From Bacillota bacterium (GTDB lineage: Bacteria; Bacillota; Dehalobacteriia; UBA4068), in the NCBI GenBank assembly GCA_031553915.1, contig JAVBKT010000002.1, forward strand, positions 271,642-335,641: DNA of 64,000 bases. Direction: 5' to 3'. A model generated the notes under the pieces. That model searched no databases. It saw nothing but the letters and a program-made list of their open reading frames with translations, and was not told the DNA's origin. Positions 5,839-64,000 of the stretch are shown one piece after another (the first letter of the stretch is position 1; each line of letters begins with the position of its first letter). The translations under genes and the position numbers were made by a program.

Positions 5839-6756
5839 CTACCCCTCTTCACCCTTGGCCGGCGCTTGTTTTTTATAGTTGGTTAACAGCACACCGCTGA
5901 TGACCGCCACAGCGCCCACCGCAAAGCTCCATCCCGGCTGCTCATCAAGAATAATAATGGCCGCAATAGTGGCAAAGATAGGCGAGAGATTATAAAAAAC
6001 GCCGGATCGGGAGGTGCCGATAATACCAATGCTGGCATAGTACCAGGTAAAAGCCAGGGCAGAGCATAAGCCGCCCAGCACAAACAGAGAAACCCAGACC
6101 GGCCAATCCAGCGCCATAATCAACTCACGCTCAAAACCGCTTTCCCAATAGGCGGGGATAATCAAAACAATTGCCGCAATCAGGCAAGCCCAGGTGACGG
6201 CGGCCAAAGGCTCCAGTGTTTGCTGCGCCAAGCGGTTGAGAAAAGTATAGATCACCCAGGCAGCCAGACCGAGAAGAATATAAATCTCTCCTGAAGACAA
6301 GCTATGGCGGAACAGATCAGCCAGATTTCCCTCACAAATAATAAACACCGCGCCAAAGGCTGAGACAATAATACCGAGGATTTGCACGGGCCGCAATTTG
6401 TCCTTAAAAATAATCGCAGAAATCAGAGCCACCAAAACCGGGTTCAGGGCCATGATCATTGAGGCGTAGCTGGCCTCCACTGTTTTTAGTCCGGAGATGA
6501 AAAAATAATTATATACAGCCATGCCGATCACAGCCATGCCGATGACAATCAGAGCTTCTTTGCGCTGCAAACGCGGCAGCCGTCCTCCTTTGGCATAAAG
6601 GGCAATCAGCAACACCACAGCGGCAATGATAAAACGAAAACAAGCTGCGGTCCAGGGCGGCATAGCTTGGGCGACAATATTGCCGGCGACAAACCCCGCT
6701 CCCCAGAGGAGATTAACTACAATCTGTTTGAGATAGTTTTGGCTGAGAAGAGACAT
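5839..6756 (-). CDS. DMT/EamA family transporter
   Basis: About 10 TM segments in two EamA repeats. Confidence 0.88.
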   Translation of the reverse strand: MSLLSQNYLKQIVVNLLWGAGFVAGNIVAQAMPPWTAACFRFIIAAVVLLIALYAKGGRLPRLQRKEALIVIGMAVIGMAVYNYFFISGLKTVEASYASMIMALNPVLVALISAIIFKDKLRPVQILGIIVSAFGAVFIICEGNLADLFRHSLSSGEIYILLGLAAWVIYTFLNRLAQQTLEPLAAVTWACLIAAIVLIIPAYWESGFERELIMALDWPVWVSLFVLGGLCSALAFTWYYASIGIIGTSRSGVFYNLSPIFATIAAIIILDEQPGWSFAVGAVAVISGVLLTNYKKQAPAKGEEG

Positions 6757-16593: not shown

Positions 16594-19116
16594 TTATCTT
16601 TCTTTAGCAAAGTGTGTTTTTCTCATACCTAGCTTGACCAGCTCATACCACAGCACAGAGACTGCTCCCAGACCAATGGCGAGAGTCAGCTGCGGCAGGC
16701 TAAGCGGAGCCAGGCCCAAAAAACTATTTACAGGGCTATAAAGAATTATTGCCAGCAGCAAACAGGCCAAAATATTAACCGCCCACATCACCTTGTCTTG
16801 GCGCAGCTTGCTAATTGTTTGCCACCAGGGCTGAGCATAAGAGCTGTTGACCTGCACCAAAAACAAATTCGCTATCATCAGCACTGTCAAACCTACCGAG
16901 CGGGCAATTTCCGACGCAGCAAAATTATTTTGTAGCAGCAGATAATAGGCGGCAAATGACGCGGCGAAAATGACTAACCCCTGCACCATACCCTTAGCCA
17001 CTATCGCCCGTGTCAAAATATTCTCGTTGGGATCACGCGGCGGAAGGGACATGATATTGTTTTCCGCCGGCTGACGCTCCAAAACCACGGAGCAGGTCGG
17101 GTCAATCACCAGCTCCAGGAGCATGATATGAAAGGGCAGCAGCATCAGCGCTTCCATCGGTATCGAGAGCATCGGCCCCAGCAAAGAAACGAGAGCAATG
17201 GGAATATGAATAGCAAAAATATAGCCGATCGCTTTGCGGATATTATCATAGATGCGTCTGCCATCGCGAATGGTATCGACAATGGTAGAAAAATTATCAT
17301 CCAACAAAACTAAATCCGCTGCTTCGCGGGCAATTTCTGATCCGCGCTTGCCCATAGCAATACCAATATCAGCATATTTGAGCGCAGCAGCGTCATTGAC
17401 GCCATCTCCGGTCATCGCCACAATTTGCCCATTAGCCTGGAAAGCAGTGACAATACGCATTTTATGTTCCGGGATCACTCTGGCAAAAACGCGCGCGCTT
17501 TGCACTGCCGCGCTTAACTCCTCGTCGCTCATCTGTTCCAGCATAGCTCCTGTTATCACCTGCTCTTGCTCAATCCCCACCTGCTCGGCAATAGCTTTGG
17601 CCGTCAGCGCATTGTCGCCGGTAATCATCACCACCGCTATGCCTGCCTGGTGACAAAGAGCAATATCTTCTTTGATACCCCCTCTGGGCGGGTCAGCCAG
17701 CGCGATCAGCCCTAACAGCCGCAAGCGGCAATTCTCTATGTTTTCGGGCAAAACTTCTGCACTCTTGACCGATGCTGTTGCCACTGCCAAAACGCGTAGT
17801 CCTTGAGAACACAGCTGCTGTAAGGCCTCATTTGCCTGCCTCGACTCTTCCGCTGACAAATCACATAAAGAAAAGACACTCTCCGCTGACCCTTTGGCGG
17901 CAATAATCACATCGCCCTCAATTTGCCAGACATGCGCCATCATCTTCGTCTGATTGGTGAAGGGATATTCCTTGATAATTTCCCCGGCACAATCACTAGC
18001 TGCCACACCCTGATCCATGGTATAGCGGATGATAGCCTTCTCCATCGGGTCATATGCTTCTTGCTCGCAGGCCATCATTGCTATTTTATTGAATTCCGCC
18101 GCAGCCGCTCCTGCCAGCCAGGTCTGGTCAACTACCATCTCGTTTTTGGTAAGCGTGCCTGTTTTATCAACACAAAGCACAGAGATCGCTCCCAATGTTT
18201 CTGTGGCTGGCAAATGGCGGATTAAAGAATTTTTTCTTGCCAAACGCCAGGCACCCATTGAGAGAAAAACAGTCAGGACCACCGGAAATTCTTCCGGAAT
18301 CATCGCCATTGCTAAAGTAATGCCTGCCAGAATGCTGTTGACTGCTCTTTCCTTGAGCAGCAAATCACTGAGATCAAAAAAGGTTATTGCGGCAACCAAA
18401 AGGCAAAGCGCCAGGGCCAGCCAGGCGCAAAATTTCACCAAACGGCGCATTTGTTTTTGCAGCGGAGTAGGCCTTACCGGCGCCTGGGCCAAAGCCGCGC
18501 TGATCTTGCCGTATTCGCTGTTGACGCCGGTTTTTTCCACCTGTACTAAGGCAAATCCCTGCAACACAAAGGTACCCGCATAGCAATAGTCCCTGCGCCA
18601 ATAATCAGCGCTGCTATCAGCGCTAAGATCAGCGCTTTTCCACACACCCTCAGCTTCCCCGGTGAGCGAGCTTTCATCCACACACAGATCATTGCAGGCG
18701 ACAATCAGGCCATCGACAGAAATTTTGTCTCCCTCGGTAATTTCCAGCAAATCTCCGGGAACCAGCTCCGTGGTTGCAATCTGCTTTTGAACTCCATCGC
18801 GGATAACCGTGCTATTAGGCTGGGAAAGCTCGCGCAGGGCGCGCAGGGTTTTATCTGTCTTCCATTCCTGAAAGATATCAATAGCAATAATCAGCACCAC
18901 AAAAACCAGCATAACCGCACCGTCAGCCGGCTCGCCCAAAAAGAAATAGATCAGTGCCGCGCCAAGCAACAGCAGAAACATCGGCTCGCGGATAATGGCC
19001 GCTGCCTGACGCAAAAAACCGGCCTTTTTTTCTGGCTCCAGCTCGTTTTTGCCAAAGCGGAGCAGCCGTTCTTTGGCTTCTTCACTGGTCAGTCCCTGCA
19101 ATTTGTGGCTATTCAT
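16594..19116 (-). CDS. Cation-translocating P-type ATPase (type II-like)
   Basis: TGE, IPEEFP, DKTGT, DPPR, MITGD and TGDGVNDA motifs; AGGAGG SD before ATG 19116. Confidence 0.95.
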   Translation of the reverse strand: MNSHKLQGLTSEEAKERLLRFGKNELEPEKKAGFLRQAAAIIREPMFLLLLGAALIYFFLGEPADGAVMLVFVVLIIAIDIFQEWKTDKTLRALRELSQPNSTVIRDGVQKQIATTELVPGDLLEITEGDKISVDGLIVACNDLCVDESSLTGEAEGVWKSADLSADSSADYWRRDYCYAGTFVLQGFALVQVEKTGVNSEYGKISAALAQAPVRPTPLQKQMRRLVKFCAWLALALCLLVAAITFFDLSDLLLKERAVNSILAGITLAMAMIPEEFPVVLTVFLSMGAWRLARKNSLIRHLPATETLGAISVLCVDKTGTLTKNEMVVDQTWLAGAAAAEFNKIAMMACEQEAYDPMEKAIIRYTMDQGVAASDCAGEIIKEYPFTNQTKMMAHVWQIEGDVIIAAKGSAESVFSLCDLSAEESRQANEALQQLCSQGLRVLAVATASVKSAEVLPENIENCRLRLLGLIALADPPRGGIKEDIALCHQAGIAVVMITGDNALTAKAIAEQVGIEQEQVITGAMLEQMSDEELSAAVQSARVFARVIPEHKMRIVTAFQANGQIVAMTGDGVNDAAALKYADIGIAMGKRGSEIAREAADLVLLDDNFSTIVDTIRDGRRIYDNIRKAIGYIFAIHIPIALVSLLGPMLSIPMEALMLLPFHIMLLELVIDPTCSVVLERQPAENNIMSLPPRDPNENILTRAIVAKGMVQGLVIFAASFAAYYLLLQNNFAASEIARSVGLTVLMIANLFLVQVNSSYAQPWWQTISKLRQDKVMWAVNILACLLLAIILYSPVNSFLGLAPLSLPQLTLAIGLGAVSVLWYELVKLGMRKTHFAKER

Positions 19117-19142
19117 AATTAGCCTCCTTATCTCTTTATAAT

Positions 19143-19187
19143 AAAAAAACATACCTGTAGGATAGTCTTACTGTCCCACAGATATGT
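19143..19187 (-). terminator. Riboswitch expression-platform terminator
   Basis: 14-bp stem ACAUAUCUGUGGGA/UCCUACAGGUAUGU plus U run; 5' arm overlaps the aptamer. Confidence 0.85.
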
Positions 19188-19258
19188 TGCTTCTTATCTG
19201 CTGCCGTAAATCACGGCCCGGCTCTTGCTTGCGCAGCGCCTGTTCAGATTGTACTGTA
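19168..19258 (-). ncRNA. NiCo (czcD) metal-sensing riboswitch aptamer
   Basis: Minus strand reads CAGUACAAUCUGAACAGGC...GAGCCGGGCC...GGCAGCAGAUA...UAUCUGUGGGACAGUA, the conserved strings of the NiCo four-way junction; upstream of a cation ATPase. Confidence 0.85.
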
Positions 19259-21505: not shown

Positions 21506-23179
21506 CTAAAAGAGCTGCGGCTGGCTCATTTTTTCCAGCAAATCCCTGGCCTGCTGCAAGGTGATTTCCCCGGCCTTGTCTCCGGCAATCATGCGCGCAA
21601 TCTCATGTATCCGTTCCTGCTGATCCAGAGTATGCGCCGCGACTACGGTGCGCCCGCCTTCCTCGTGTTTTTCCAGCATCACCTGATGCGCTGCCGCTGC
21701 CGCGGTCACCGCATTATGCGTGACTACCAGCGCCTGCGCGCTTTCGCCCACCATAGCAATACGCTGGGCCACAGCTACCAGGGCTTTGCCGGAAAGTCCG
21801 GTATCCACTTCATCAAAGACTAAGGTTGGCACAAAATCGAGCCGCGATAAAATAACCTTCAACCCTAAAACAATACGCGAAAGTTCGCCACCGCTGGCAA
21901 TTTTGGCCACCGGCTGAAAAGGCTCGCCCACATTAGGGCAAATCATAAACAAAGCATGTTCATTGCCTGTTTTGGCAGCAGGGTTGGTTAGCAAATCAAC
22001 ACGAAAATGCGCATTGGGCATCGAGAGCATTTGCAGCTCTCTCGTCACCACCGAGGACAAAGACTTCGCTGCCTGCTGCCGGGCAGCGGTTAATTTTGCC
22101 GCGGCCTGGTCATACTTACTCTGTGCTTGTTGCTGGCGCAGATATAAGCTATCCGCGCTAAGAGAAAGCTCCTCCAGCTGGTTTAGCTCTTGCCTGGAAG
22201 AGTCCAATTTAGCAATCAGCTCATCAATACTGCTATGGTATTTTTTGCTCAGCCTGCTGATCAGCGCGCGCCTGGCTTCAACGATCTCCAGCCGCTGCGA
22301 GTCAAGATTGACCCGCTCCTGATAAGCAGTCATTTCCCGGGACAAATCTTCCGCCTCATAAAAAAGGCTGCGCGTCCGCTCGGCCAATGACTCTGCCTGC
22401 GTGTCCAAATCAGCAATAGCTTTAATATTGTTCAGGGCATCACCCAGGCTGTCTATGGCTGCGCCGCTGTTATTAAGCGCGGAAAAAGCGGCGCCGGCCA
22501 GCTGATAAAGCTTCTCGCCATGCACCAATAAATTAGCTTCCGCCGCCAACTCCTCATCTTCGCCCGGAACGAGCTCAGCCTTTTGCAGTTCGTCAATTAT
22601 GTAATGCAACTCTTCGCTGCGGGAAAGCAGCTGGTCGCGGTTTTGCTCATATTTTTTGATCTCTTGCTTTGCTGCCAGCAATTGCTGATAGGCGGTTGCG
22701 GTTGCCGTGAGTTGCTCCTTGATCGCCGGGTCAAAGCTGTCCAAAAGCAGCAATTGCTGCTCTTCTTCCAGTAATAACATATGCTCGCTTTGGCCATGAA
22801 TATTAATCAGCAAACGTCCCAGCTCGCGCAGCTGCGATAAATTAGTGACAGCGCCGTTAATGCGGGCGATGCTTCTGCCGCCGCGAACCAGTTCCCGCCG
22901 CAAAATCAGCGTATCTTCAATATCAAACCCAGCCCCACGCAGCAAATTGCCGGCAGGTTCCGGAAAGGGCGGCAAAAATACCCCCTCCACCACCGCTTTA
23001 TCCTCGCCACTGCGAATAAAACTATCACTGCCGCGGCTGCCAATCAACAAAGAAACTGCGTCAATCAGCAGGGATTTGCCCGCGCCGGTCTCACCGGTCA
23101 GGGCATTCATCCCCTCACCAAGATTAAGGCGCAAAGTAGAAATCAGCGCAAAATTTTCCGCATACAGTTCGTAGAGCAT
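21506..23179 (-). CDS. recN: DNA repair protein RecN
   Basis: LTGETGAGKS, SGGELSR, FDEVDTG; coiled coil. Confidence 0.97.
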   Translation of the reverse strand: MLYELYAENFALISTLRLNLGEGMNALTGETGAGKSLLIDAVSLLIGSRGSDSFIRSGEDKAVVEGVFLPPFPEPAGNLLRGAGFDIEDTLILRRELVRGGRSIARINGAVTNLSQLRELGRLLINIHGQSEHMLLLEEEQQLLLLDSFDPAIKEQLTATATAYQQLLAAKQEIKKYEQNRDQLLSRSEELHYIIDELQKAELVPGEDEELAAEANLLVHGEKLYQLAGAAFSALNNSGAAIDSLGDALNNIKAIADLDTQAESLAERTRSLFYEAEDLSREMTAYQERVNLDSQRLEIVEARRALISRLSKKYHSSIDELIAKLDSSRQELNQLEELSLSADSLYLRQQQAQSKYDQAAAKLTAARQQAAKSLSSVVTRELQMLSMPNAHFRVDLLTNPAAKTGNEHALFMICPNVGEPFQPVAKIASGGELSRIVLGLKVILSRLDFVPTLVFDEVDTGLSGKALVAVAQRIAMVGESAQALVVTHNAVTAAAAAHQVMLEKHEEGGRTVVAAHTLDQQERIHEIARMIAGDKAGEITLQQARDLLEKMSQPQLF

Positions 23180-23203
23180 ATATCCCTCTCGCTTATTTGC
23201 AGC

Positions 23204-23656
23204 TTAGGCCATCAGGGTTCTGATGCGCTCTGCCAAGGCATTGACGTCGTCTTCATCGCGGATAGCGACAAAAATAGTATCATCACCGGCAATACTGCCG
23301 ACAATTTCTTTCCATCCCAAACCGTCCAGACAAAAAGCTACGCCTTGGGCAGTCCCCGGCAAAGCCTTCAGGATAACCAGGTTACGCGCCACATCAACCT
23401 TAATCAGATTGTCACGCAGCATCCTTTTCACCCGGTCAAAGGTGTTGACGGTAGTCATACCCGGGGGGAAGCCATAGCAAAAGGTATTGTCGCCGGTAGC
23501 GATTTTCACCAGGCCTAAATCCTTGATATCGCGTGAAATAGTAGCCTGGGTGACATTTAAGCCATAGCGGGCCAAGGCCTCTGTCAGCTGATATTGGGTT
23601 TCAATATTCTGCTGTTCAATAATTTCACGAATAATTTTATGCCGCCGTGTCTTCAT
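23204..23656 (-). CDS. argR: Arginine repressor
   Basis: TQATISRDIK; GSIAGDDTIF. Confidence 0.97.
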   Translation of the reverse strand: MKTRRHKIIREIIEQQNIETQYQLTEALARYGLNVTQATISRDIKDLGLVKIATGDNTFCYGFPPGMTTVNTFDRVKRMLRDNLIKVDVARNLVILKALPGTAQGVAFCLDGLGWKEIVGSIAGDDTIFVAIRDEDDVNALAERIRTLMA

Positions 23657-23682
23657 CGTTTTTCCTCCTTAAGTTTGATAGT

Positions 23683-24531
23683 TTAGTCGCTAATCGTTTT
23701 TTTATAAATTTTTTCTTTGATACGGTGGAAATAATCATTTTTGCCAAACTGAATGAATTTGGCCTTGCTGTCCGCTGAACAAATGCGGATCTGGTCATTT
23801 CTCTCCAGGGGGATATGGGATTGGCCGTCAGCGGTCAAAAAAGCCACGCCCGAGGAGCTTCTGTAATAAATATCAATCACGCTGGATGAGGGCGCCACGA
23901 TCGGCCGGGAAAAGAAACCATGCGGGCAAACAGGGGTAATCATATTGATTTCCATATCTTCCATAATCAAAGGCCCGCCGGCAGAAAGCGAATAGCCGGT
24001 GCTGCCTGTCGGTGTTGCCACAATAATGCCATCCGCGCGGTAGTCATTGACATGCTGCTCGTCAATATACAGCTGCAAAGAAATGGCGCGCGAATACTTG
24101 CCATAGCTAACCACAAAATCATTAAGCACCGAAAATGTTGCGATAATCTGCCCGTTTCTGATCAGCTCAGCCTTGATCATGGAGCGTTCTTTAAGCGTAT
24201 AATCACCGCTGAGGATTTTGTCCATAGCGGCAAAGGCATCCGCCCCCTCGGCCGAACAAAGAAAACCGATACGCCCCATATTAATGCCACAAATGGGGAT
24301 GCCGTACTTGGCCAGCTGACGAAAGGAGGCCAGCAGCGTACCATCGCCGCCCAGCACGATAGCCAGATCAACCGCAGAAAAATCAAGAGAAACAATATCG
24401 TCGATATTAATGGAGTTAGCCCCGTTAAAGGACATAATTTCCATGCCCCGCTCATATAAATACTTTGCGAGAAGGGCGGAGCTTTCAATGCTCTCTTGCC
24501 GTTTTGGGTTATATATAAACGCTGTTTTCAT
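23683..24531 (-). CDS. nadK: NAD(+) kinase
   Basis: GGDGT, GRIGFL, ATPTGSTGYSLSAGG. Confidence 0.96.
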   Translation of the reverse strand: MKTAFIYNPKRQESIESSALLAKYLYERGMEIMSFNGANSINIDDIVSLDFSAVDLAIVLGGDGTLLASFRQLAKYGIPICGINMGRIGFLCSAEGADAFAAMDKILSGDYTLKERSMIKAELIRNGQIIATFSVLNDFVVSYGKYSRAISLQLYIDEQHVNDYRADGIIVATPTGSTGYSLSAGGPLIMEDMEINMITPVCPHGFFSRPIVAPSSSVIDIYYRSSSGVAFLTADGQSHIPLERNDQIRICSADSKAKFIQFGKNDYFHRIKEKIYKKTISD

Positions 24532-24696
24532 CGATGCTCCTTGTCAACATCATTTATGCATATTGTGTATATTGATATACTACCCAATTTATGCGGATAT
24601 TTCAAGTCTTTTCCTAATATTTATACACATTATATCTTTTATGTCGCTATTTGTTGAAACATTCTTGCATAAAAGGGAAGGTAAACGCCCCAATTA

Positions 24697-25284
24697 TTGA
24701 GAAAGTTATCTAATACAAACAGTAAAAAGGGGGAAATTCGAACGTCTAAGTCAGAGAAAAAAAGTAATATCATTCTGGTGGGCTTTATGGGCAGCGGCAA
24801 AACCGTAATCGGCCGCAATATCGCCCGCCTGCTTGATTATAATTTTGCTGATACTGATGATGCCATCAGAGATGTGACTGGCATGGATTTGGTGACGCTG
24901 TTCCGCAAACACGGGGAGATCCGCTTTCGTTCCGAAGAACAGCTGGTGATTAAAAAGCTGGCGGATAAACAGCAGTTGGTTATCGCTTGCGGCGGCAGCC
25001 TGATTCCGGCTGCGGAAAACCTCAATCTGCTGCGCGATAATGGCTATTTTGTGCTGCTTTCTGCCTCCCCAGAGGTGATTTATAACCGCCTCAGCCGCAA
25101 AAACAACCGTCTTTTGCCTGCCGGCAAGCCTTCTCTTGCTGATATTGAAAAAATGCTGGCGCATAGACAAGAGTATTTTGCCGATCTCAGCCATATCAGT
25201 GTTGATACCGGCGCCATGAACGTAGAACAGGCGGCAAATTATATTGCCGGGCAATATCAGGGTTATTTGCGAAAAGAGGATTAG
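24697..25284 (+). CDS. aroK: Shikimate kinase
   Basis: GFMGSGKT, GEIRFRSEE, CGG; start codon uncertain. Confidence 0.9.
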   Translation: MRKLSNTNSKKGEIRTSKSEKKSNIILVGFMGSGKTVIGRNIARLLDYNFADTDDAIRDVTGMDLVTLFRKHGEIRFRSEEQLVIKKLADKQQLVIACGGSLIPAAENLNLLRDNGYFVLLSASPEVIYNRLSRKNNRLLPAGKPSLADIEKMLAHRQEYFADLSHISVDTGAMNVEQAANYIAGQYQGYLRKED

Positions 25285-25308
25285 CGGCCGCAAAATTTAT
25301 ACTATAAT

Positions 25309-25366
25309 TTGTACTATTATGCTATCCATGTTATAATAAAACCACGCTTAGGCGTGGTTTTATTAT
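25309..25366 (+). promoter_or_regulatory. SigA promoter of rbgA overlapped by a 15-bp palindrome
   Basis: TTGTAC-N17-TATAAT (25309-25337); ATAATAAAACCACGC-TTAG-GCGTGGTTTTATTAT (25333-25366). Confidence 0.55.
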
Positions 25367-25381
25367 ATTTTCTAAGAGGTT

Positions 25382-26248
25382 ATGATGATTCAGTGGTACC
25401 CCGGCCATATGGCCAAAACCAAACGGAATATTGAGGCTGATCTGGCCCTGGTCGATATGATTATCGAGGTTGTGGACGCGCGCATCCCCGGCTCTTCCCG
25501 TAATCCGGATCTGCAACCATATATAGACAAAAAGGCCCATTTGCTTTTGCTCAACAAAAGTGATCTGGCCAATGAAAACCTGACTAAAAGATGGAAAAAA
25601 TATTACCGTGAGCTGGGCTATATTCCCGCCAGCATTAATGCAGCCCGCAAGCAGGGCCTAAAAGAAATGCTCGCTGCCATTGCAATAGCCTCCCGGCCCA
25701 TTATGGAGCGGCTGAAAAGCAAAAACCGCTTGCCTCGGCCAATACGAGCCATGGTGCTGGGGATTCCCAATTGCGGCAAATCAACGGTGATCAATGCTAT
25801 TGCGCCCTCTGCCGCAGCCAAAACCGGCAACAAGCCCGGTGTGACCCGCGGCCGCCAGTGGGTAAAAACCAATGCCGGCATTGAGCTGCTGGATACCCCG
25901 GGTATGCTCTGGCCCAAATTCGCCGACTATGATACCGCCTTCAAGCTTGCTGTTTGCGGGTCAATCAGCGACAATGTCTACCCCACCTATCAGGTTGGCT
26001 GCGAATTGGCAGTTTTACTGACGCGCATAGCGCCTGAGGCGCTCGCGGAACGTTACAAAATGGCAGCTATCCCGGAGACAGGCGAGGAAATAATGATCGA
26101 AATTGCCAAAGCGCGCGGTATGCTCGGACAAGGGGGCAAGCCGCGCGAGGAAGACGCGGCCATGCTGCTGATTCAGGAGTTCCGCGCCGGAAAAATCGGC
26201 CGAATCACCTTGGAAAAACCACAGAGCTCGCAAACGGAGGAAAGATAA
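25382..26248 (+). CDS. rbgA: Ribosome biogenesis GTPase RbgA/YlqF
   Basis: IQWYPGHM, NKSD, GIPNCGKS, DTPG (circularly permuted GTPase). Confidence 0.97.
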   Translation: MMIQWYPGHMAKTKRNIEADLALVDMIIEVVDARIPGSSRNPDLQPYIDKKAHLLLLNKSDLANENLTKRWKKYYRELGYIPASINAARKQGLKEMLAAIAIASRPIMERLKSKNRLPRPIRAMVLGIPNCGKSTVINAIAPSAAAKTGNKPGVTRGRQWVKTNAGIELLDTPGMLWPKFADYDTAFKLAVCGSISDNVYPTYQVGCELAVLLTRIAPEALAERYKMAAIPETGEEIMIEIAKARGMLGQGGKPREEDAAMLLIQEFRAGKIGRITLEKPQSSQTEER

Positions 26249-26872
26249 TTGCCGGGAAAGCTAGATCAAGCTGAAATAGAACGCCTGAGCCAAATGAGCA
26301 GCTATGAGCAAGAGCTATGGCAAAACGGGCTGCAATATGTGGCTGGCATTGATGAAGTGGGGCGCGGCCCTCTGGCCGGGCCGGTGACAGCTGCGGCAGT
26401 AATACTGCCGCCCAACTGCCTGATTGCCGGCATTAATGACAGCAAAAAAATAGCGGAAAAAAAGCGCCTGGCCCTGGAAGAAGAAATCAAAGACGCGGCT
26501 ATTGCCTGGGCCTGTGTTTCCATAAACCACCGCGTAATTGACCGCACCAATATCAAGGAAGCCGCCCGTCTGGCTATGGCCAAAGCAGTAGCTGCCCTGG
26601 ACATCTTTCCCGAACATTTGCTGATTGACGCCGAAAAGATTGATCTTGATATACCGCAAACAGCGATTATCAAGGGCGACGCCAAAAGCATTTCTATTGC
26701 GGCAGCCAGCATTATTGCCAAAAACACCCGCGATAAATTAATGGTGATCTGCGACAGCAAATGGCCCGAATATGGTTTTGCCCAGCATAAGGGTTATCCG
26801 ACTGCTGCCCATAAAGCAGCTTTACGCGAACATGGCCCCTCCCCTATTCACCGCCTCACTTTCAAGTATTAG
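26249..26872 (+). CDS. rnhB: Ribonuclease HII
   Basis: GIDEVGRGPLAGPV, DSKK, IAAASIIAK. Confidence 0.97.
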   Translation: MPGKLDQAEIERLSQMSSYEQELWQNGLQYVAGIDEVGRGPLAGPVTAAAVILPPNCLIAGINDSKKIAEKKRLALEEEIKDAAIAWACVSINHRVIDRTNIKEAARLAMAKAVAALDIFPEHLLIDAEKIDLDIPQTAIIKGDAKSISIAAASIIAKNTRDKLMVICDSKWPEYGFAQHKGYPTAAHKAALREHGPSPIHRLTFKY

Positions 26873-26881
26873 GAGCGCTTT

Positions 26882-27232
26882 ATGGCAAAAAATTCCAGCA
26901 AAGCTGATGGAAACCGCGGTGAGGATATTGCCGCGCGCTTTTTGAGCCGCTCAGGCTACAGCATACTTGAGCGCAATTTTCGCCAAGGCCCGGGAGAAAT
27001 AGATATTATCGCCCAGAAAAAGGGTATTATCTATTTTGTCGAAGTAAAGGCCCGGCATAGCAGCAAATTTGCCACCCCTGCCGATAGTGTTACGCCCAAC
27101 AAAAGAGGTCATATTGCCAAGGCTGCGTCATTGTGGTTTGCCAAGCACGGTGAGAGCGACAGCGGCTTTATCGTTGCGGAGGTTGATCTTAACAATGAGG
27201 CTGTCTATTTAATAGAAGATTTTTTGCTCTAG
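26882..27232 (+). CDS. yraN: YraN family protein
   Basis: GEIDIIA and FVEVKAR motifs; follows rnhB. Confidence 0.92.
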   Translation: MAKNSSKADGNRGEDIAARFLSRSGYSILERNFRQGPGEIDIIAQKKGIIYFVEVKARHSSKFATPADSVTPNKRGHIAKAASLWFAKHGESDSGFIVAEVDLNNEAVYLIEDFLL

Positions 27233-27308
27233 CAGTGTTAATAATCACTCTTTTGTCATTTGACAAACAGATGGATAATATGATAGTTTATAGCCGTTAA
27301 GCTTAAAC

Positions 27309-27330
27309 TAAGCATCATTTAAGCATCATT
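27309..27330 (+). repeat. 11-bp perfect tandem repeat upstream of the dxs SD
   Basis: TAAGCATCATT x2. Confidence 0.8.
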
Positions 27331-27346
27331 ACTGGAGGAATATTTT

Positions 27347-29209
27347 TTGAGCCGATTGATTGATACAATTAATAGTCCGGCTGACTTAAAAGGCTTGTCC
27401 ATAGATGAACTGGCCCAGCTAGCAGCGGAAATCCGGGAAATGATCATTGCCACTACTGCCAAAAACGGCGGGCATCTTGCGCCTAATCTTGGCATAGTTG
27501 AGCTAACCTTGGCTTTGCACTATGTTTTTGATACCCCAAAAGACAAGTTAATCTTTGACGTGGGGCATCAAAGCTATACTCATAAAATTATTACCGGACG
27601 CAGGGAGCGTTTCAGCTCTATCCGCACACCGGAGGGCTTAAGCGGCTTTTGCCTCAAAGAAGAAAGCGAGTATGACTGCTTTTCTACCGGGCACAGCAGC
27701 AATTCCATTTCTGTAGCTTTGGGCATGGCAACAGCGCGTGACCTCTCCGGCTCCACGCATAAAATTGTCGCTATCTTGGGTGACGGCGCCTTAACCGGAG
27801 GCGTGGCCTGGGAAGCGATGGATCATGCCGGCGATATGAAAACGCCGTTGATGGTTGTCTTAAATGACAACAGCATGAGCATTGACCGCAATGTGGGCGC
27901 CTTGAACAGCTATCTCTCTCATTTGCGCTCCAACCCCGGCTACCGCAACGCCAAAAAGAAAGTGCGTAATTTTCTTTTGCACATTCCTTTGATTGGCAAG
28001 GGCTTGGTTCGCTTTATCAGCGGCTTTAAGCATTGGTTGAAATCGCTGTTTGTCAGCGGCATGATTTTTGAAGATATGGGCTTTACCTATCTCGGTCCCA
28101 CTGACGGGCATAATCTGGAAGAGATTATTGAGATTCTGCGGCGCGCGGCGGAGATACAAAAACCGGTCTTTTTGCATATGGTGACGCAAAAAGGCAAGGG
28201 CTATGCCCCAGCGGAAGAACACCCTTGCGGCTGGCATGGGGTAGAACCTTTTGATGCTGCCACCGGCACTCCGCTTAATAGCAGCCTCAACCTCACCTAC
28301 ACCGGCGCCTTTGGCGAAACCATGCTGGGCTTGGCTGAGGAGGATGAGCGCATTATCGCTATCACCGCAGCGATGGCAGACGGCACCGGCTTGACTGCTT
28401 TCAAAAAGCGCTTTCCCGGGCGTTTCTATGATGTCGGCATTGCCGAGCAACATGCCATTTCCTTTGCCGCAGGCTTAGCCTCTGCCGGAAAAAGGCCTGT
28501 GGTGGCTATTTATTCCTCTTTCATCCAAAGAGCATATGACCAGATCCTGGAAGATGTTTGCCTGCAAAAGCTGCCCATCACCATTGCGCTGGACCGCGCC
28601 GGTATTATCGGCAGCGATGGCTATACGCATCAGGGGATTTATGATATATCCTTCCTGCGCAGCATTCCCACCTTGACCATTATGGCTCCGTCCGATGCCC
28701 GCGAATTGCGCTCGATGCTGCGCTTTTCCTTGAAAATGGCTCAGCCCGCGGCTATCCGCTATCCCAAAGGCATCTCAACCGATCTGCCTCTGGCCATCCC
28801 GGAAATTGAGCTTGGCAAAGCGATTGTGATTAAGGAAGGCTCAGACATGGCCTTTTTTGCCCTGGGCTCAATGGTATCCGTTGCTTTGGAGGCGGCGTCA
28901 TTATTGTATCATCAGGGAATTTCCGCCCAGGTGGTCAATGCCCGTTTTGCCGCGCCTCTTGACCAGGATATGCTAACGCAATGCGTCCGGGACTGTCAGG
29001 GGAGAATTATTACCGTTGAAGAGAATGTGCAGGCCGGCGGTTTTGGCGAAGGATGTCAGGCTGCCATCAATGGACATGGCGCTGATATTATTATTGCTGC
29101 CCTACCCAATAAATTTATCCCCCATGGTAACCGAGCCCAACAGCTGGACCAAATGGGCCTGAGCGCGGAAAAACTGGCTGAGACTGCCAGGCAAAAATGG
29201 TTTAGGTAA
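27347..29209 (+). CDS. dxs: 1-deoxy-D-xylulose-5-phosphate synthase
   Basis: GGHLAPNLG, GDGALTGG...LNDN TPP motif, GIAEQHA. Confidence 0.98.
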   Translation: MSRLIDTINSPADLKGLSIDELAQLAAEIREMIIATTAKNGGHLAPNLGIVELTLALHYVFDTPKDKLIFDVGHQSYTHKIITGRRERFSSIRTPEGLSGFCLKEESEYDCFSTGHSSNSISVALGMATARDLSGSTHKIVAILGDGALTGGVAWEAMDHAGDMKTPLMVVLNDNSMSIDRNVGALNSYLSHLRSNPGYRNAKKKVRNFLLHIPLIGKGLVRFISGFKHWLKSLFVSGMIFEDMGFTYLGPTDGHNLEEIIEILRRAAEIQKPVFLHMVTQKGKGYAPAEEHPCGWHGVEPFDAATGTPLNSSLNLTYTGAFGETMLGLAEEDERIIAITAAMADGTGLTAFKKRFPGRFYDVGIAEQHAISFAAGLASAGKRPVVAIYSSFIQRAYDQILEDVCLQKLPITIALDRAGIIGSDGYTHQGIYDISFLRSIPTLTIMAPSDARELRSMLRFSLKMAQPAAIRYPKGISTDLPLAIPEIELGKAIVIKEGSDMAFFALGSMVSVALEAASLLYHQGISAQVVNARFAAPLDQDMLTQCVRDCQGRIITVEENVQAGGFGEGCQAAINGHGADIIIAALPNKFIPHGNRAQQLDQMGLSAEKLAETARQKWFR

Positions 29210-29215
29210 CTATAG

Positions 29216-30025
29216 ATGAAAGAAGAAAAAAAGCGGCTGGATATCCTGCTGACTGAACGCGGACTCTTCCCTTCCCGCGAGCAGGCAAGGTCAGCGATTA
29301 TGGCAGGAAATGTGCTGGTCGATGAGCAAAAAATTGATAAAGCCGGGGCTGCGGTCAAGGAAAGCTGCCAGATTCGCCTGCTTGGCGAGCGGCTGCCTTA
29401 TGTCTCCCGCGGGGGCCTCAAACTAGCCAAGGCCATTACCAGCTTTGGGCTCGATTTGGCGGGAAAAACTATTATTGATATTGGCGCCTCCACCGGCGGT
29501 TTTGTCGATTGCGCTCTGCAAAATGGCGCTGCCAAGATCTATGCTGTGGATGTGGGCTATAATCAGCTGGCCTGGAAGCTGCGCAATGACAGCCGCGTGG
29601 TAGTGATGGAAAAAACCAACGCCCGCTATCTGGACCAAAGCCTGATCACATGTAGCGTGGACATGCTTACCGCTGACGTTTCTTTTATCTCGCTTAGCTT
29701 GGTGATCCCGCCTGCTGCGCAAACCCTCTTGAAAGACAAGGGAGAGGTTGTGGCATTAATCAAGCCGCAATTTGAGGCAGGAAAAGCAGCTATCGGCAAG
29801 GGCGGTATTGTCCGCGACAAAGCTACGCATAAACAAGTAGTGGAAAAGATTATCGCTAACTTTGAACAAAACAATCTCGGTATCCGCGCTCTGGACTATT
29901 CGCCGATTACCGGAGCTGACGGTAATATTGAATATCTGATCTATGCGCAGAAAAACAGCCCTTCTCTACCGTTTGATCTCGATAAAATTATCGATGCCGC
30001 ACATCACGAGCATCATAAAAATTAG
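29216..30025 (+). CDS. tlyA: TlyA family RNA methyltransferase
   Basis: N-terminal S4 domain; YVSRGGLKL; DIGASTGGF. Confidence 0.96.
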   Translation: MKEEKKRLDILLTERGLFPSREQARSAIMAGNVLVDEQKIDKAGAAVKESCQIRLLGERLPYVSRGGLKLAKAITSFGLDLAGKTIIDIGASTGGFVDCALQNGAAKIYAVDVGYNQLAWKLRNDSRVVVMEKTNARYLDQSLITCSVDMLTADVSFISLSLVIPPAAQTLLKDKGEVVALIKPQFEAGKAAIGKGGIVRDKATHKQVVEKIIANFEQNNLGIRALDYSPITGADGNIEYLIYAQKNSPSLPFDLDKIIDAAHHEHHKN

Positions 30026-60353: not shown

Positions 60354-60740
60354 TTACATAGAAATTAGTAGATCACCAGTGTTGACAGCATCATTGAGAT
60401 TAACGTGAATGCCTTTAATCGTGCCGTCTTGAGGCGCGGAAATATCATTTTCCATTTTCATCGCTTCCAGAATCATCAGCACATCGCCCTTTTTGACTGC
60501 CTGACCCACGCTGATATTAATCTTCCAAACATTGCCCGGCAAGGGGCTGTCAATTCTGACGTCACCGGCAGCTACTGCTGCGGCAGCGGCAATCGGTGCT
60601 GCTGGCGTAGCTGCTGCAACCGCAGCGGGCGCAGCTGCGACAACAGCTGGTGCAGGTGCAGCAACAGCGGCAGCGCCGCCAATTTCTTCCACCTCTACAC
60701 TATAGCTTATACCATTAACTGCTACGTTAAATTTTCTCAT
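60354..60740 (-). CDS. mmdC: Biotin carrier (gamma) subunit of the decarboxylase
   Basis: Ala/Pro linker; EAMKM biotinylation motif. Confidence 0.9.
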   Translation of the reverse strand: MRKFNVAVNGISYSVEVEEIGGAAAVAAPAPAVVAAAPAAVAAATPAAPIAAAAAVAAGDVRIDSPLPGNVWKINISVGQAVKKGDVLMILEAMKMENDISAPQDGTIKGIHVNLNDAVNTGDLLISM

Positions 60741-60761
60741 TTGTTCTATCCTCCCACATCT

Positions 60762-61166
60762 TTACAAGTTTTGTTGTCTACTATGAATGATGTCAGCAGT
60801 ACCACTGCTCTGCCAAGCATTATTGTTGCGGCGAATAGCAGTAAACCGCAATTGTTGGGCTGGTTTGCCGCAATACACCTCCACCGCTGCCACAATAGCA
60901 GCCACAGTTTGCGTATCCAAATCTGCTGTGGCGTCCACAGCGGCTGCTTTGGACTTCTTGGTTTTTTTCTCTTTTGGCTCTTTTTTGCTCTGAGCAGTGT
61001 CCAGAGCGGAAATACCCTTAAAAAGAACATACAAGGCAATCAGGACGAGAAAAACAACGCCCATACCAATCACTGTGGTGCTAATGCCTGTTTCCAGGGT
61101 TAGATCGGTGATATACCCGGGGGTCTCATCAATGGTTGCCAATACGACATATAAATTGTTCACCAT
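60762..61166 (-). CDS. mmdD: OadG-family (delta) subunit
   Basis: GMGVVFLVL TM; VAAIVAAV; C-terminal W..SG. Confidence 0.85.
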   Translation of the reverse strand: MVNNLYVVLATIDETPGYITDLTLETGISTTVIGMGVVFLVLIALYVLFKGISALDTAQSKKEPKEKKTKKSKAAAVDATADLDTQTVAAIVAAVEVYCGKPAQQLRFTAIRRNNNAWQSSGTADIIHSRQQNL

Positions 61167-61181
61167 TTTACCTCCTTTTTC

Positions 61182-62726
61182 TTAGCAAGGGAAATTGCCA
61201 TGCTTTTTGCCGGGGCGTGTTTCTTTCTTGCTGAGCAAGGCGTCAATGGCTTTGATCACATAGAAACGGCTGACTTCCGGTTCGATCACCGTATCAACCA
61301 GGCCGCGGCTGGCAGCATGATAGGGATCAGCATAGCTGTCCTCATACTCAGCTGTTTTGATGCCCCGCATGGCATGTGGATCAGCAGCTTGATCAATCTC
61401 TTCGCGGAAAAGGATATTGGCTGCGCCCAGGGGGTCCATGACGGCAATCTGCGCTGTGGGCCAGGCTATCACCATATCCGCGCCCAGAGCCTTGCTGCAC
61501 ATGGCCAAATAAGCGCCCCCGTAAGCCTTGCGGGTGATCACCACCACCTTGGGCACAGATGCTTCCGCATAGGCATAAACGAGCTTGGAGGCATGGCGGA
61601 TAATACCGTTATCGTTTTCAGCAATAGTGGGAACATATCCGGGAGTATCGACAAAGGTTAACAGCGGAATGCCCATCGAATCACAAAAACGCACAAAGGA
61701 ACTGGCTTTGTCGCTGCTGTTAATATCCAGGCAGCCGGAGGCGGAATTGGGCTGATTGGCAACAACGCCAATACTGACGCCATTCATCCTGATCAACCCT
61801 GTTATGATATTGGTAGCAAAATAAGCTTGTACCTCGAAAAAGTCTTGATTATCAGCAATATTGCGGATAATATCATGCATATCATAAGGCTGGTTAGCAT
61901 CTTCCGGCAATAAATCTGCCAGGGCCGCAGTACGTTCAGCAGGATCGCTGCATTTATACATGGGAGAACCCTCGAGATTATTAGCCGGCAAAAAGGAGAG
62001 CAAGCGTTTGATCTGCGACAGGCAATCAGCCTCGTCCACCGCATAAAAGTGAGCGGAGCCGCTTTTGGCATTATGCGTCATCGCGCCTGCCAAGTCCTCA
62101 GCGCTAATATTAGTGTTGGCCACAGCGCTCACTACTCCGGGCGCAAGCAGGCCCATCTCCGCACCGTTCACCATAAAGGTAAAATCGCTGAGGGCCGTAG
62201 TGATGGCTGCCCCGCCATAGCAGGGGCCCATAATAGCGGTAATCTGCGGTATCACCCCGGAAGCTAAAACACTGCGGCGGTAAATTTCCGCATAGCCGTT
62301 TAAGGCGTCAATGCCCTCTTGGATACGCGCTCCGGCGCTATCGCTGATGCCGATAAGGGGAACTCCGGCTGATAGGGCCATATCCATCACCTTACAAATT
62401 TTCGCGGCATGCATCTCTCCCACAGAGCCGCCAAAAACAGTAAAATCCTGAGAATAAACATAGACCAGTCTGCCATCCACATTACCATAGCCTGTTACGA
62501 CACCTTCTCCGGGTATTGCAATATCCCGCATGTCAAAAGCTACACTTCTGTGAGTAACGAACTGATCCAGTTCCATAAAGCTGCCAGCATCGAGCAAAGC
62601 GTCAATTCTTTCTCTGGCAGTCATTTTCCCAGCGCTATGCTGTTTAGTAATTTTCTCTTCACCGCCGGCTGCGAGAACTTGTTCCCTTTTAGCAGCAAGT
62701 TTTTCCAGCTTGGCTTCTTTTGACAT
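61182..62726 (-). CDS. mmdA: Methylmalonyl-CoA decarboxylase alpha (carboxyltransferase) subunit
   Basis: GKMTARERI, GARIQEG, RKAYGGAY, KKHGNFP; AGGAGG SD before ATG 62726. Confidence 0.88.
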   Translation of the reverse strand: MSKEAKLEKLAAKREQVLAAGGEEKITKQHSAGKMTARERIDALLDAGSFMELDQFVTHRSVAFDMRDIAIPGEGVVTGYGNVDGRLVYVYSQDFTVFGGSVGEMHAAKICKVMDMALSAGVPLIGISDSAGARIQEGIDALNGYAEIYRRSVLASGVIPQITAIMGPCYGGAAITTALSDFTFMVNGAEMGLLAPGVVSAVANTNISAEDLAGAMTHNAKSGSAHFYAVDEADCLSQIKRLLSFLPANNLEGSPMYKCSDPAERTAALADLLPEDANQPYDMHDIIRNIADNQDFFEVQAYFATNIITGLIRMNGVSIGVVANQPNSASGCLDINSSDKASSFVRFCDSMGIPLLTFVDTPGYVPTIAENDNGIIRHASKLVYAYAEASVPKVVVITRKAYGGAYLAMCSKALGADMVIAWPTAQIAVMDPLGAANILFREEIDQAADPHAMRGIKTAEYEDSYADPYHAASRGLVDTVIEPEVSRFYVIKAIDALLSKKETRPGKKHGNFPC

Positions 62727-62923
62727 CTCTTTACCTCCTAAAATATCTAAAAGAATACGAACAAATCGCAAAACACAGCACACCAATAATTAAGACAAGA
62801 TGCTTTTAGACAAAAAAAATAATCGTAAAAAATCTATTACTATATTACTGCATTAATATAATATTTAGGATAACATAAATAGTAGTGTATCGCAATGATA
62901 ATTTTTTTAAAAATGAAATTTTA

Positions 62924-63070
62924 TTAAAAATTTTTGATACTATAAACAAAGCATAGTGAGCTGAGGAACAAGCAAATCAAGACGGCTGACATCAAAACGA
63001 TGCAGACCGATAAGAGCTGCGCCAAAAGGCCAACTGTGACAACAACAAAGTAAGCAAATTTTATCAACAC
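62924..63070 (-). CDS. Possible 48-aa hydrophobic peptide
   Basis: GTG start; MLIKFAYFVVVTVGLLAQLLSVCIVLMSAVLICLFLSSLCFVYSIKNF; no clear SD. Confidence 0.25.
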   Translation of the reverse strand: MLIKFAYFVVVTVGLLAQLLSVCIVLMSAVLICLFLSSLCFVYSIKNF

Positions 63071-63073
63071 TCT

Positions 63074-63436
63074 TAGCCATTTGGGATGCGAACCCCATGC
63101 GGTTTTGGCGGAAAAACGCTGGCATCTCCCGATAAAAACATTGTTTCCCGTAGATATACTACGAAAAGCAATGTTTTCACCAGGATTTGTTTAGTTAAAA
63201 CCAAGATGTTTCATCTTGGTTTTAACTAAATGCATAGCTGAGATTTTGCCATAGGCAAAAGCCAGCTAGGTCTCACTGTTTTCCAGTCAAAACTGCTAAC
63301 ACCCCGACGGAGGGAGGGTCGGGCTGGGCCAGGCAGAGTGACGAAGGCAGGCTGGACGCCTGCCTAGGAGCGATAACAAAGCGCCAGCTCGACCAAACGC
63401 CGTCCGGGGCGCATGAGTTTGCATCCCTAATGGCTA
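63074..63436. other. 363-nt multi-hairpin element (structured ncRNA or MITE-like)
   Basis: 28/27-nt terminal inverted repeat enclosing at least four long hairpins, including a perfect 19-bp one. Confidence 0.7.
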
Positions 63437-63547
63437 GCCGCTGAGGGCAAAATTATCAAGCTGCCTGCTTACCGCAGAAAACCAGGTAAAATGCAGCTAT
63501 CACAAACTGTTAATCTTGGTTACACATATTTATCAGGGTTGCGCTTG

Positions 63548-63576
63548 GCAGGAATTAATTTGCCAATATGGAAATA
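63548..63576 (+). promoter_or_regulatory. SigH-like promoter of hpf
   Basis: GCAGGAATT-N11-ATGGAAATA; one mismatch to the SigH -10 GAAT; hpf/yvyD is SigH-controlled in B. subtilis. Confidence 0.35.
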
Positions 63577-63618
63577 ATATATTAGGTAAGCACACTACTA
63601 TGAAGCGAGGTGGAAATC

Positions 63619-64000
63619 ATGGAGTTTACGTATAAAGCACGAAACCTTGAAATCACAGACGCCATGAAGGAATATTGTGAAAAAAGGCTGCAAAAGCTGG
63701 ACAAACTAATTGGCGTGGAGCGCGCCAGCATATCCATGAGCGCAATCAAAGACCGGCATCGCATTGAAGTAACAATTCCTTATCACGGCGTCACCATCCG
63801 CGGCGAAGTGGAAGGCTATGATATGTATACCTGCATCGACTATGTCAGTGAAAAACTAGAATCCCAGATTCATAAATATCGGCAGCGCCTGATCAAACGG
63901 GGGCGTAACACCGGCAAGGAGCTGGGCGGCTATCGCGAGGAGATGGCAGCAGCCTGGTTTGAGGACGACGAGCCGGTAAAAACCAAAACCTTTACCACCA
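63619..64000 (+). CDS. hpf: Ribosome hibernation factor HPF/RaiA (long form), truncated by the window end
   Basis: GAGGTG SD; MEFTYKARNLEITDAMKEYCEKRLQKLDK...DMYTCID..SEKLESQIHKYR. Confidence 0.93.
   Translation, partial: MEFTYKARNLEITDAMKEYCEKRLQKLDKLIGVERASISMSAIKDRHRIEVTIPYHGVTIRGEVEGYDMYTCIDYVSEKLESQIHKYRQRLIKRGRNTGKELGGYREEMAAAWFEDDEPVKTKTFTT

Follow-up and report, generated by a model that had tools for sequence, protein, structure and literature searches.

Between mmdA and hpf in an uncultured Bacillota bacterium, positions 63074-63436 form a 363-nt element that is genuine and structurally remarkable. Its self-complementarity exceeds chance and it belongs to no described RNA family. 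On balance, the evidence leans towards MITE-like DNA inserted at a rearrangement point rather than towards a proven new RNA gene. All positions refer to the window, the whole 64,000-nt stretch of DNA that was analysed.

The two readings carry different consequences. As a MITE or foldback insertion, the element would be commonplace in kind but new in sequence, and its interest would lie in marking how the mmd operon and hpf became neighbours; the contig may even be mis-joined there. As an RNA, it would be a rare 360-nt, 76%-paired bacterial molecule without relatives at the position typical of the raiA motif, and it would be relevant to the still unsolved question of what RNAs linked to ribosome hibernation do.

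Architecture and folding of the element

In outline, a 27-bp closing stem surrounds a three-hairpin domain and a 108-nt GC-rich arm. The arms of this stem, P1, constitute the left and right terminal inverted repeats and were detected both with a repeat finder and in the MFE structure, the 5' arm at 63074-63101 (TAGCCATTTGGGATGCGAACCCCATGCG) and the 3' arm at 63410-63436 (CGCATGAGTTTGCATCCCTAATGGCTA). The repeat finder delimits 20-nt arms of 90% identity (63074-63093 and 63417-63436), and the MFE helix is longer, about 27 bp interrupted by a single T-T mismatch and a single bulge. TA borders the element at both outer ends. Directly inside P1, with zero linker, begins a second-level stem, P2 (63102-63126/63269-63295), which was absent from the initial annotation of this locus. 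P2 encloses three hairpins as one domain: H1 (63127-63185, core 63135-63177), H2 (63189-63231), whose arms at 63190-63208 and 63212-63230 form a perfect 19-bp helix with a 3-nt loop, and H3 (63235-63268). The resulting domain A (63102-63295, 194 nt, 39% GC) is recovered by MFE folding of both strands and as DNA.

A six-base linker separates domain A from the long arm (63302-63409, plus strand; 108 nt, 69% GC), which in turn lies flush against the 3' arm of P1. The long arm is capped by an 8-bp hairpin, AGGCAGGC-TGGAC-GCCTGCCT (63345-63365), and is interrupted on the plus strand by two tandem G-A/A-G loops (63336-37/63372-73 and 63340-41/63368-69). Its 5' strand carries a predicted canonical G-quadruplex motif, GGGAGGGTCGGGCTGGG (63312-63328, plus strand), with loops of 1, 2 and 2 nt, the sole short-loop G3 motif in the 64-kb window; a quadruplex at this site would compete with the long-arm helix. 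Over the whole element 138 of about 181 possible pairs form, corresponding to 76% of bases paired, and the three-way junctions are compact, with next to no linker. Base composition is mosaic, with 39% GC in domain A and 69% in the long arm against 48% in the genome. Since excision of domain A would leave P1 and the long arm as one continuous rod, a nested composite origin is plausible. The ORFs within the element are 47 aa or shorter.

The closing stem, the inner hairpins, the perfect 19-bp helix, the long arm and its cap had all been described in the initial annotation and were reproduced here, as was a further stem that it placed at about 63459-63498. The latter is a separate, weaker hairpin outside the element (63458-63498, AGCTGC...GCAGCT, z of about -3.8 on the plus strand); no T-run follows it and no terminator was called there.

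Folded as RNA, the segment 63060-63510 reaches -196 kcal/mol on the plus strand (z = -10.9) and -201 kcal/mol on the minus strand (z = -10.5), the z-scores being relative to 100 dinucleotide shuffles, none of which (0/100) folded as well. The element alone gives -103 kcal/mol as DNA (z = -12.3) and MFE values of -176.2 (plus) versus -178.4 kcal/mol (minus) as RNA. In a 150-nt sliding fold scan of the whole window the element region is the top outlier, followed by gene ends at 15.6 kb and 32.5 kb, and no comparable inverted repeat was found elsewhere in the 64 kb. Extreme thermodynamic structure alone cannot tell an RNA gene from palindromic DNA.

The evidence as to strand is in conflict. With 9 G-U pairs on the plus strand versus 11 on the minus strand, there is no net RNA-strand bias. 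The mixed G-U bias noted in the initial annotation was borne out, with plus-strand wobbles in P1, P2 and the long arm and minus-strand wobbles in H1; P1, P2, the base of H2 and the long arm together account for all but one of the nine plus-strand G-U pairs. The five minus-strand wobbles of H1 become five A-C oppositions on the plus strand, and this hairpin folds at -31.9 kcal/mol on the minus strand versus -19.2 kcal/mol on the plus strand, a preference of 12.7 kcal/mol for the minus strand. On the plus strand, the internal loops of the long arm contain 28 purines versus 3 pyrimidines, loops in the remainder of the element being balanced (12 versus 14); unpaired bases comprise A 38, C 18, G 16 and T 15, A thus making up 44%; and the predicted ensemble is tighter than on the minus strand (27 versus 43). 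The left flank, 62935-63073, is likewise A-rich and purine-rich on the plus strand. Neither a sigma-70-type plus-strand promoter nor an intrinsic terminator was predicted to bracket the element. A minus-strand promoter-like site was predicted at 63604-63576 and a weak terminator-like feature in H1, also on the minus strand; promoter-like sites were no commoner than in shuffled sequences.

Relatives of the element and its genomic setting

At gathering score, Rfam 15 returned nothing at the element; its only matches in the window, five tRNAs and a NiCo riboswitch, lie elsewhere. A cmscan of 62750-63650 (901 bases, both strands, E<=10) yielded no raiA match and only far-sub-threshold, meaningless microRNA-type matches on H2. 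Together, the two scans ruled out raiA, OLE, GOLLD, ROOL, HEARO, 6S and SRP RNAs as well as RNase P, tmRNA, group I and II introns and riboswitches. The initial annotation, which had reported that the hallmarks of tmRNA, RNase P, SRP, 6S and group II introns were absent and had proposed a cmscan against Rfam, is therefore upheld: no known family is found at the element. The same annotation could not find the conserved strings of raiA-motif RNAs, and as raiA is missing even from the match list at E<=10, membership in this class is rejected by test.

RNAs of the raiA motif measure about 200 nt and combine six to eight stems with two pseudoknots; 51 of their nucleotides are highly conserved, and in 66% of cases the gene precedes raiA, its usual place being between comFC and raiA (PMC10861870). 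The element shares with them a position directly upstream of an hpf/raiA gene in a Bacillota genome and a large, multi-stem, non-coding nature (PMC10861870, PMC12968392), but it differs in its length of 363 nt, in giving no covariance-model match at E<=10 and in its neighbourhood, comFC being absent from the 64-kb window. Neither a raiA RNA nor a look-alike of the element was detected in the comFC-hpf loci of relatives, and the literature on newly described large bacterial RNAs offered nothing relevant beyond the raiA papers.

Searches for other copies were similarly negative. BLAST with word sizes of 9-11 found no second copy in the 64-kb window, and none of the five helices recurs there at 14 nt or more. 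Neither the whole element nor a 36-nt end of it matched PLSDB plasmids or GenBank phages; an end pattern and a pseudo-protein gave no match in IMG/VR; and two pseudo-protein scans of JGI metagenomes, with 12 back-translated 24-nt patterns (two of them concatenation joints), found none. Six frames of the element and its flanks were compared with 5.8 billion predicted proteins at E<=10, a search meant to catch ORFs spuriously called on other copies. Not one frame matched, in agreement with the view of the initial annotation that no recognisable protein is encoded. The scan of GTDB genomes covered the termini of the element alone, as a 20-nt pattern, and produced one chance match (L002, 6677-6696), which lies inside a protease-like coding sequence of a Bacteroidetes MAG. 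The source organism is poorly sampled in sequence collections: its hpf and mmdA have their closest homologues in one Logan run, at 80% and 79% identity respectively, and the next ones do not exceed 70%.

The flanking genes are those named in the initial annotation. On the left, divergently oriented, is mmdA (61182-62726, minus strand), encoding the carboxyltransferase subunit of methylmalonyl-CoA decarboxylase with its Carboxyl_trans domain. On the right is hpf (63619-64000, plus strand, running off the window), which encodes a long-form hibernation promoting factor with a Ribosomal_S30AE domain and the C-terminal domain, and is followed by ctpA and an ABC transporter on a contig of the same strain (L003). 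A Pfam analysis of the 49 ORFs of the 64-kb window revealed housekeeping genes only and no transposase, mobile-type integrase, reverse transcriptase or phage gene. The cognate transposase for which the initial annotation suggested searching is thus missing from the window, just as its copy-number check gave no other copies in the window or the collections searched.

Alignment to relatives places the element within a lineage-specific block of about 610 nt (62931-63546). Similarity to the mmdA upstream region of the 80% relative (L014) ends at about 62930 and similarity to the hpf upstream regions of relatives (L004, L005, L011) begins at about 63546, from which we conclude that the block is where two ancestral gene orders were broken and joined. 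A BLAST search of the block against all fetched loci retrieved only contigs of the same strain and a chance 21-mer. On the hpf side, relatives share the order pcsB-ftsX-ftsE <-> comFC-(radical SAM)-hpf-ctpA, with 50-190 nt upstream of hpf; on the mmd side they have tRNA-Arg(CCG) <-> (epimerase)-mmdA-mmdD-mmdC-mmdB-dinG. The syntenic conservation that the initial annotation proposed to look for did not materialise: the element is missing next to both hpf and mmdA, in the 80% relative (L004, L014) as in the 65-70% relatives. Because these genomes carry comFC-hpf and tRNA-Arg(CCG)/mmdA instead, the element marks a synteny breakpoint, and because their neighbouring genes differ there is no clean empty site.

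All mmdA relatives (L014, L015-L018) have the divergent tRNA-Arg(CCG) gene 230-310 nt upstream of the mmd operon, and the 69% relatives an additional methylmalonyl-CoA epimerase-like gene ahead of mmdA. The window has neither at 62727-62930, and tRNA-Arg(CCG) is not among its five tRNAs; a search of the block for a tRNA remnant found none. Strains of the 69% relative differ from one another by the presence or absence of 294 nt of non-coding DNA before tRNA-Arg(CCG) (L015 and L016, 3654-4531; L017, 3948-4531), the sequence of which is unrelated to the element.

The element lies outside the conserved control regions of both neighbours. A promoter-like motif of hpf, GCAGGAAT-N14-GGAAATA (63548-63576, plus strand), is located downstream of the element and is not part of it. 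In the general form GCAGGAAT-N13/14-GGAA(A/T/G)TA, this motif precedes hpf by 45-60 nt, with constant spacing to the start codon, in four genomes: the window, L004 (about 6290-6320), L005 and L011. We take it to resemble the sigma-H promoter consensus, and a sigma-H-like motif is in line with stationary-phase expression of hpf. With a conserved hpf promoter downstream of the element, the link between element and hpf is positional only. For this reason, and in view of the lack of copies and conservation, the rating of the element in the initial annotation as the best candidate for a new system appears overstated.

The same strain is also represented in Logan run SRR23967709 (assembled with k=31). 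Up to 63118 and from 63366 its contigs match the window at every position save for a single substitution at an unpaired base (63383 G>T), and that assembly therefore breaks inside the element. One contig (L001, window 60459-63118) stops 45 nt inside the element, and L003 takes up again at 63366, 71 nt short of the right end. Possible causes are a repeated sequence, low coverage, and drop-out over hairpins or the G-quadruplex motif. The other end of L001, at 60459, falls within mmdC (60354-60740), whose product contains a long alanine-rich stretch.

Origin and possible roles

We tentatively favour, as a reading that has somewhat less than an even chance of being correct, an inserted, MITE- or foldback-like palindromic non-coding DNA at a rearrangement junction. 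The element may be composite, with an AT-rich 194-nt palindromic unit (domain A) seated in the 5' strand of a GC-rich rod (P1 and the long arm). A transposase acting in trans would have recognised the terminal repeats and moved it, and the element, or recombination between copies of it, would have created the junction that placed the mmd operon beside hpf in this lineage. Such an element would at present lack a dedicated role in the cell. Were it transcribed by read-through, RNase III would probably act on its long helices, which could also affect the expression of mmdA and hpf by insulation or modulation; effects of this kind have been described for the Correia elements of Neisseria.

Several properties are those expected of such an insertion. 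The terminal inverted repeats (20 nt at 90%, extended to about 27 bp) lie at the exact ends and are bordered by TA on both sides; the element is small, at 363 nt, and without coding capacity; both strands and single-stranded DNA fold equally well, with balanced G-U pairs (9 plus versus 11 minus); the H2 palindrome pairs perfectly over 19 bp around a 3-nt loop; and base composition switches from 39% to 69% GC in a 48% GC genome. Its absence from the orthologous sites of the 80% and 65-70% relatives at a synteny breakpoint, the lack of a predicted promoter and terminator that would define an RNA gene, the lack of an Rfam family and the break of the Logan assembly at 63118 and 63366, as expected of repeated or hard-to-sequence DNA, point in the same direction. 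Against an insertion stand the missing further copies and empty sites that characterise MITEs: none was seen in the window, plasmids, phages, IMG/VR, JGI metagenomes or the 5.8-billion-protein set, and the GTDB end-pattern match is a chance one within coding sequence. The 64 kb also hold no transposase, mobile-type integrase or reverse transcriptase, and no target-site duplication is demonstrable beyond the TA/TA at the borders. Moreover, five independent helices in two enclosing stems, with 76% of bases paired, represent more order than a MITE needs, and the purine bias in loops, the 44% A among unpaired bases and the tighter plus-strand ensemble look like selection on one strand. An imperfect 13-14-nt direct repeat, GCAAATTTTATCAA / GCAAAATTATCAA (63053-63066 and 63446-63458), flanks the element symmetrically at a distance of 8-10 nt on either side; it scores no higher than shuffled flanks, and flank-to-flank repeats, considered as att sites or as a target-site duplication, were no better than chance.

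By the criterion of the initial annotation, which counted missing copies and missing conservation towards a decayed relic and a conserved syntenic copy towards an RNA, these results lean to an inserted or relic element. Of its two options, the mobile or relic one is thus favoured, and the other, in the form of an RNA conserved in synteny at the raiA locus, loses ground.

Comparison with known palindromic elements gives partial likenesses. Copy numbers of Correia-type elements range from tens to hundreds, and their interiors lack nested hairpins. With these and other MITEs the element shares its non-coding nature, a length of a few hundred bases, terminal inverted repeats of about 26-27 nt, TA borders, an intergenic location beside promoters and a transcript that would form long helices. 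It differs in that no second copy or cognate transposase was found and in that its whole interior is paired. REP, BIME and REPIN sequences and BOX-type palindromes consist of units repeated many times per genome. The element resembles them in its short imperfect palindromes, packed intergenically and foldable on either strand, but no helix of it recurs in 64 kb at 14 nt or more. In invertons, inverted repeats of 20-30 bp flank an invertible promoter segment and a hairpin interior is not needed. Here too there are 20-30 bp inverted repeats around a segment of about 300 bp between divergent operons; however, the window encodes no invertase, its only tyrosine recombinase being XerD-like and located 14 kb away in a housekeeping cluster.

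A new, lineage-restricted and highly structured plus-strand non-coding RNA, read in the same direction as hpf, is possible but somewhat less probable. The 27-bp P1 helix would hold both termini of the molecule together, a design shared by many stable RNAs; the long arm, rich in purines and containing tandem G-A pairs, would offer a protein- or ribosome-binding surface; and the RNA would occupy the niche upstream of hpf that raiA-motif RNA holds in other Bacillota. An RNA would account for the extreme and well-defined fold, the compact three-way junctions with hardly any linker, the excess of A among unpaired plus-strand bases (A 38, C 18, G 16, T 15), the 28 purines versus 3 pyrimidines and the two tandem GA/GA loops of the long arm, the location of eight of nine plus-strand G-U pairs in P1, P2, the H2 base or the long arm, and the A-rich, purine-rich left flank. 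On the mmdA side, in addition, the equivalent strand of relatives carries a gene for a stable RNA, tRNA-Arg, and the position directly upstream of hpf recalls the 66% of raiA-motif RNAs found upstream of raiA (PMC10861870). Yet the closest relatives lack the element, and with no homologue found there is no covariation to support the helices; no sigma-70 plus-strand promoter or terminator is predicted; H1 has five A-C oppositions on the plus strand and is 12.7 kcal/mol better on the minus strand; and hpf has a conserved promoter downstream of the element. Uninterrupted helices of 12-20 bp with 3-nt loops are also unusual in functional bacterial RNAs and would attract RNase III, and the element is built of such helices. 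A bolder form of the proposal would make the element the only sequenced member of a new class of large, almost fully paired plus-strand RNAs upstream of hpf, in a raiA-like niche, with the purine-rich, tandem-G-A and G-quadruplex-capable long arm as the functional surface; this we regard as unlikely.

It is quite improbable that the join of mmdA, element and hpf is wholly or partly false. In that event the element, or its interior at 63089-63395, would occur as a repeat at more than one locus, and the assembler, walking through it, would have fused the mmdA and hpf loci; the element itself would still be real, and the case would be a variant of the repeat hypothesis. The synteny break falls exactly at the element, and the k=31 Logan assembly ends 45 nt inside its left end and restarts 71 nt before its right end. 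The remaining end of L001, at 60459 within mmdC with its alanine-rich product, may mark a low-complexity repeat, which would suggest that this assembly breaks at repeats. On the other hand, the two P1 arms lie on different Logan contigs and are nevertheless complementary, as in one intact element, low coverage or drop-out over the hairpins and the G-quadruplex motif explains the gap equally well, and no other copy was seen. There is a similarly slim chance that the element acts in cis on its neighbours, as a long structured leader (of hpf, from an upstream promoter on the plus strand, or of the mmd operon, from one on the minus strand) or as a DNA-level structure, for example a cruciform extruded at the perfect H2 palindrome and coupling the divergent promoters to supercoiling. 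Its position between two divergent operons, the minus-strand promoter-like site (63604-63576) with the weak terminator-like feature in H1, and the 3-nt spacer of the 19-bp H2 palindrome would suit such a role; but the conserved upstream regions of both neighbours end before the element, the same genes are expressed in relatives that lack it, promoter-like sites are no commoner than in shuffles, and no riboswitch or leader family was matched.

The plus-strand layout finally recalls retrons, whose ncRNA has a closing inverted repeat, short 5' hairpins and one long 3' hairpin, and adjoins its reverse transcriptase. The terminal inverted repeat and the order of short 5' hairpins and a long 3' hairpin are common to the element and to retron msr/msd, and the strong folding as single-stranded DNA would fit a relic of a retron-like or rolling-circle system (a single-strand origin in the latter case) that has lost its protein genes. 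Such a relic is very improbable. The element has the extra enclosing stem P2 and is larger than typical retron RNAs; Pfam analysis of the 49 window ORFs and the downstream contig L003 revealed no adjacent reverse transcriptase; no reverse transcriptase, Rep or relaxase gene is present in the 64 kb or the 4.7 kb downstream; and no plasmid or phage matched.

Additional features of the locus

Other candidate functions were also considered. A 48-aa, very hydrophobic ORF (62924-63070, minus strand) directly abuts the left end of the element. A reading as a type I toxin gained no support: the ORF has a GTG start, no convincing ribosome-binding site and no homologue, and lies on a T-rich strand. Lacking both a convincing ribosome-binding site and a homologue, it is probably a by-product of that T-rich strand. 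A replication origin was dismissed, as GC skew is negative across the window and near zero downstream, with no DnaA-box cluster, and a CRISPR/tracrRNA-like reading of the GTTTT/AAAAC-rich helices was dropped, the window having no cas genes.

The window contains at 21509-30022 a cluster of recN, argR, nadK, dxs and a tlyA-like methyltransferase gene, a neighbourhood that we take to house OLE RNA in some anaerobic Firmicutes; the window gave no OLE match at the Rfam gathering score. The hpf contig of the 80% relative (L004) ends in a large SRP RNA gene (8879-9045, 86.8 bits), downstream of ctpA and an HTH gene. The NiCo riboswitch of the window (19169-19257, minus strand, 67.7 bits) immediately precedes the gene for a P-type cation ATPase (16597-19152, minus strand), an ordinary arrangement.
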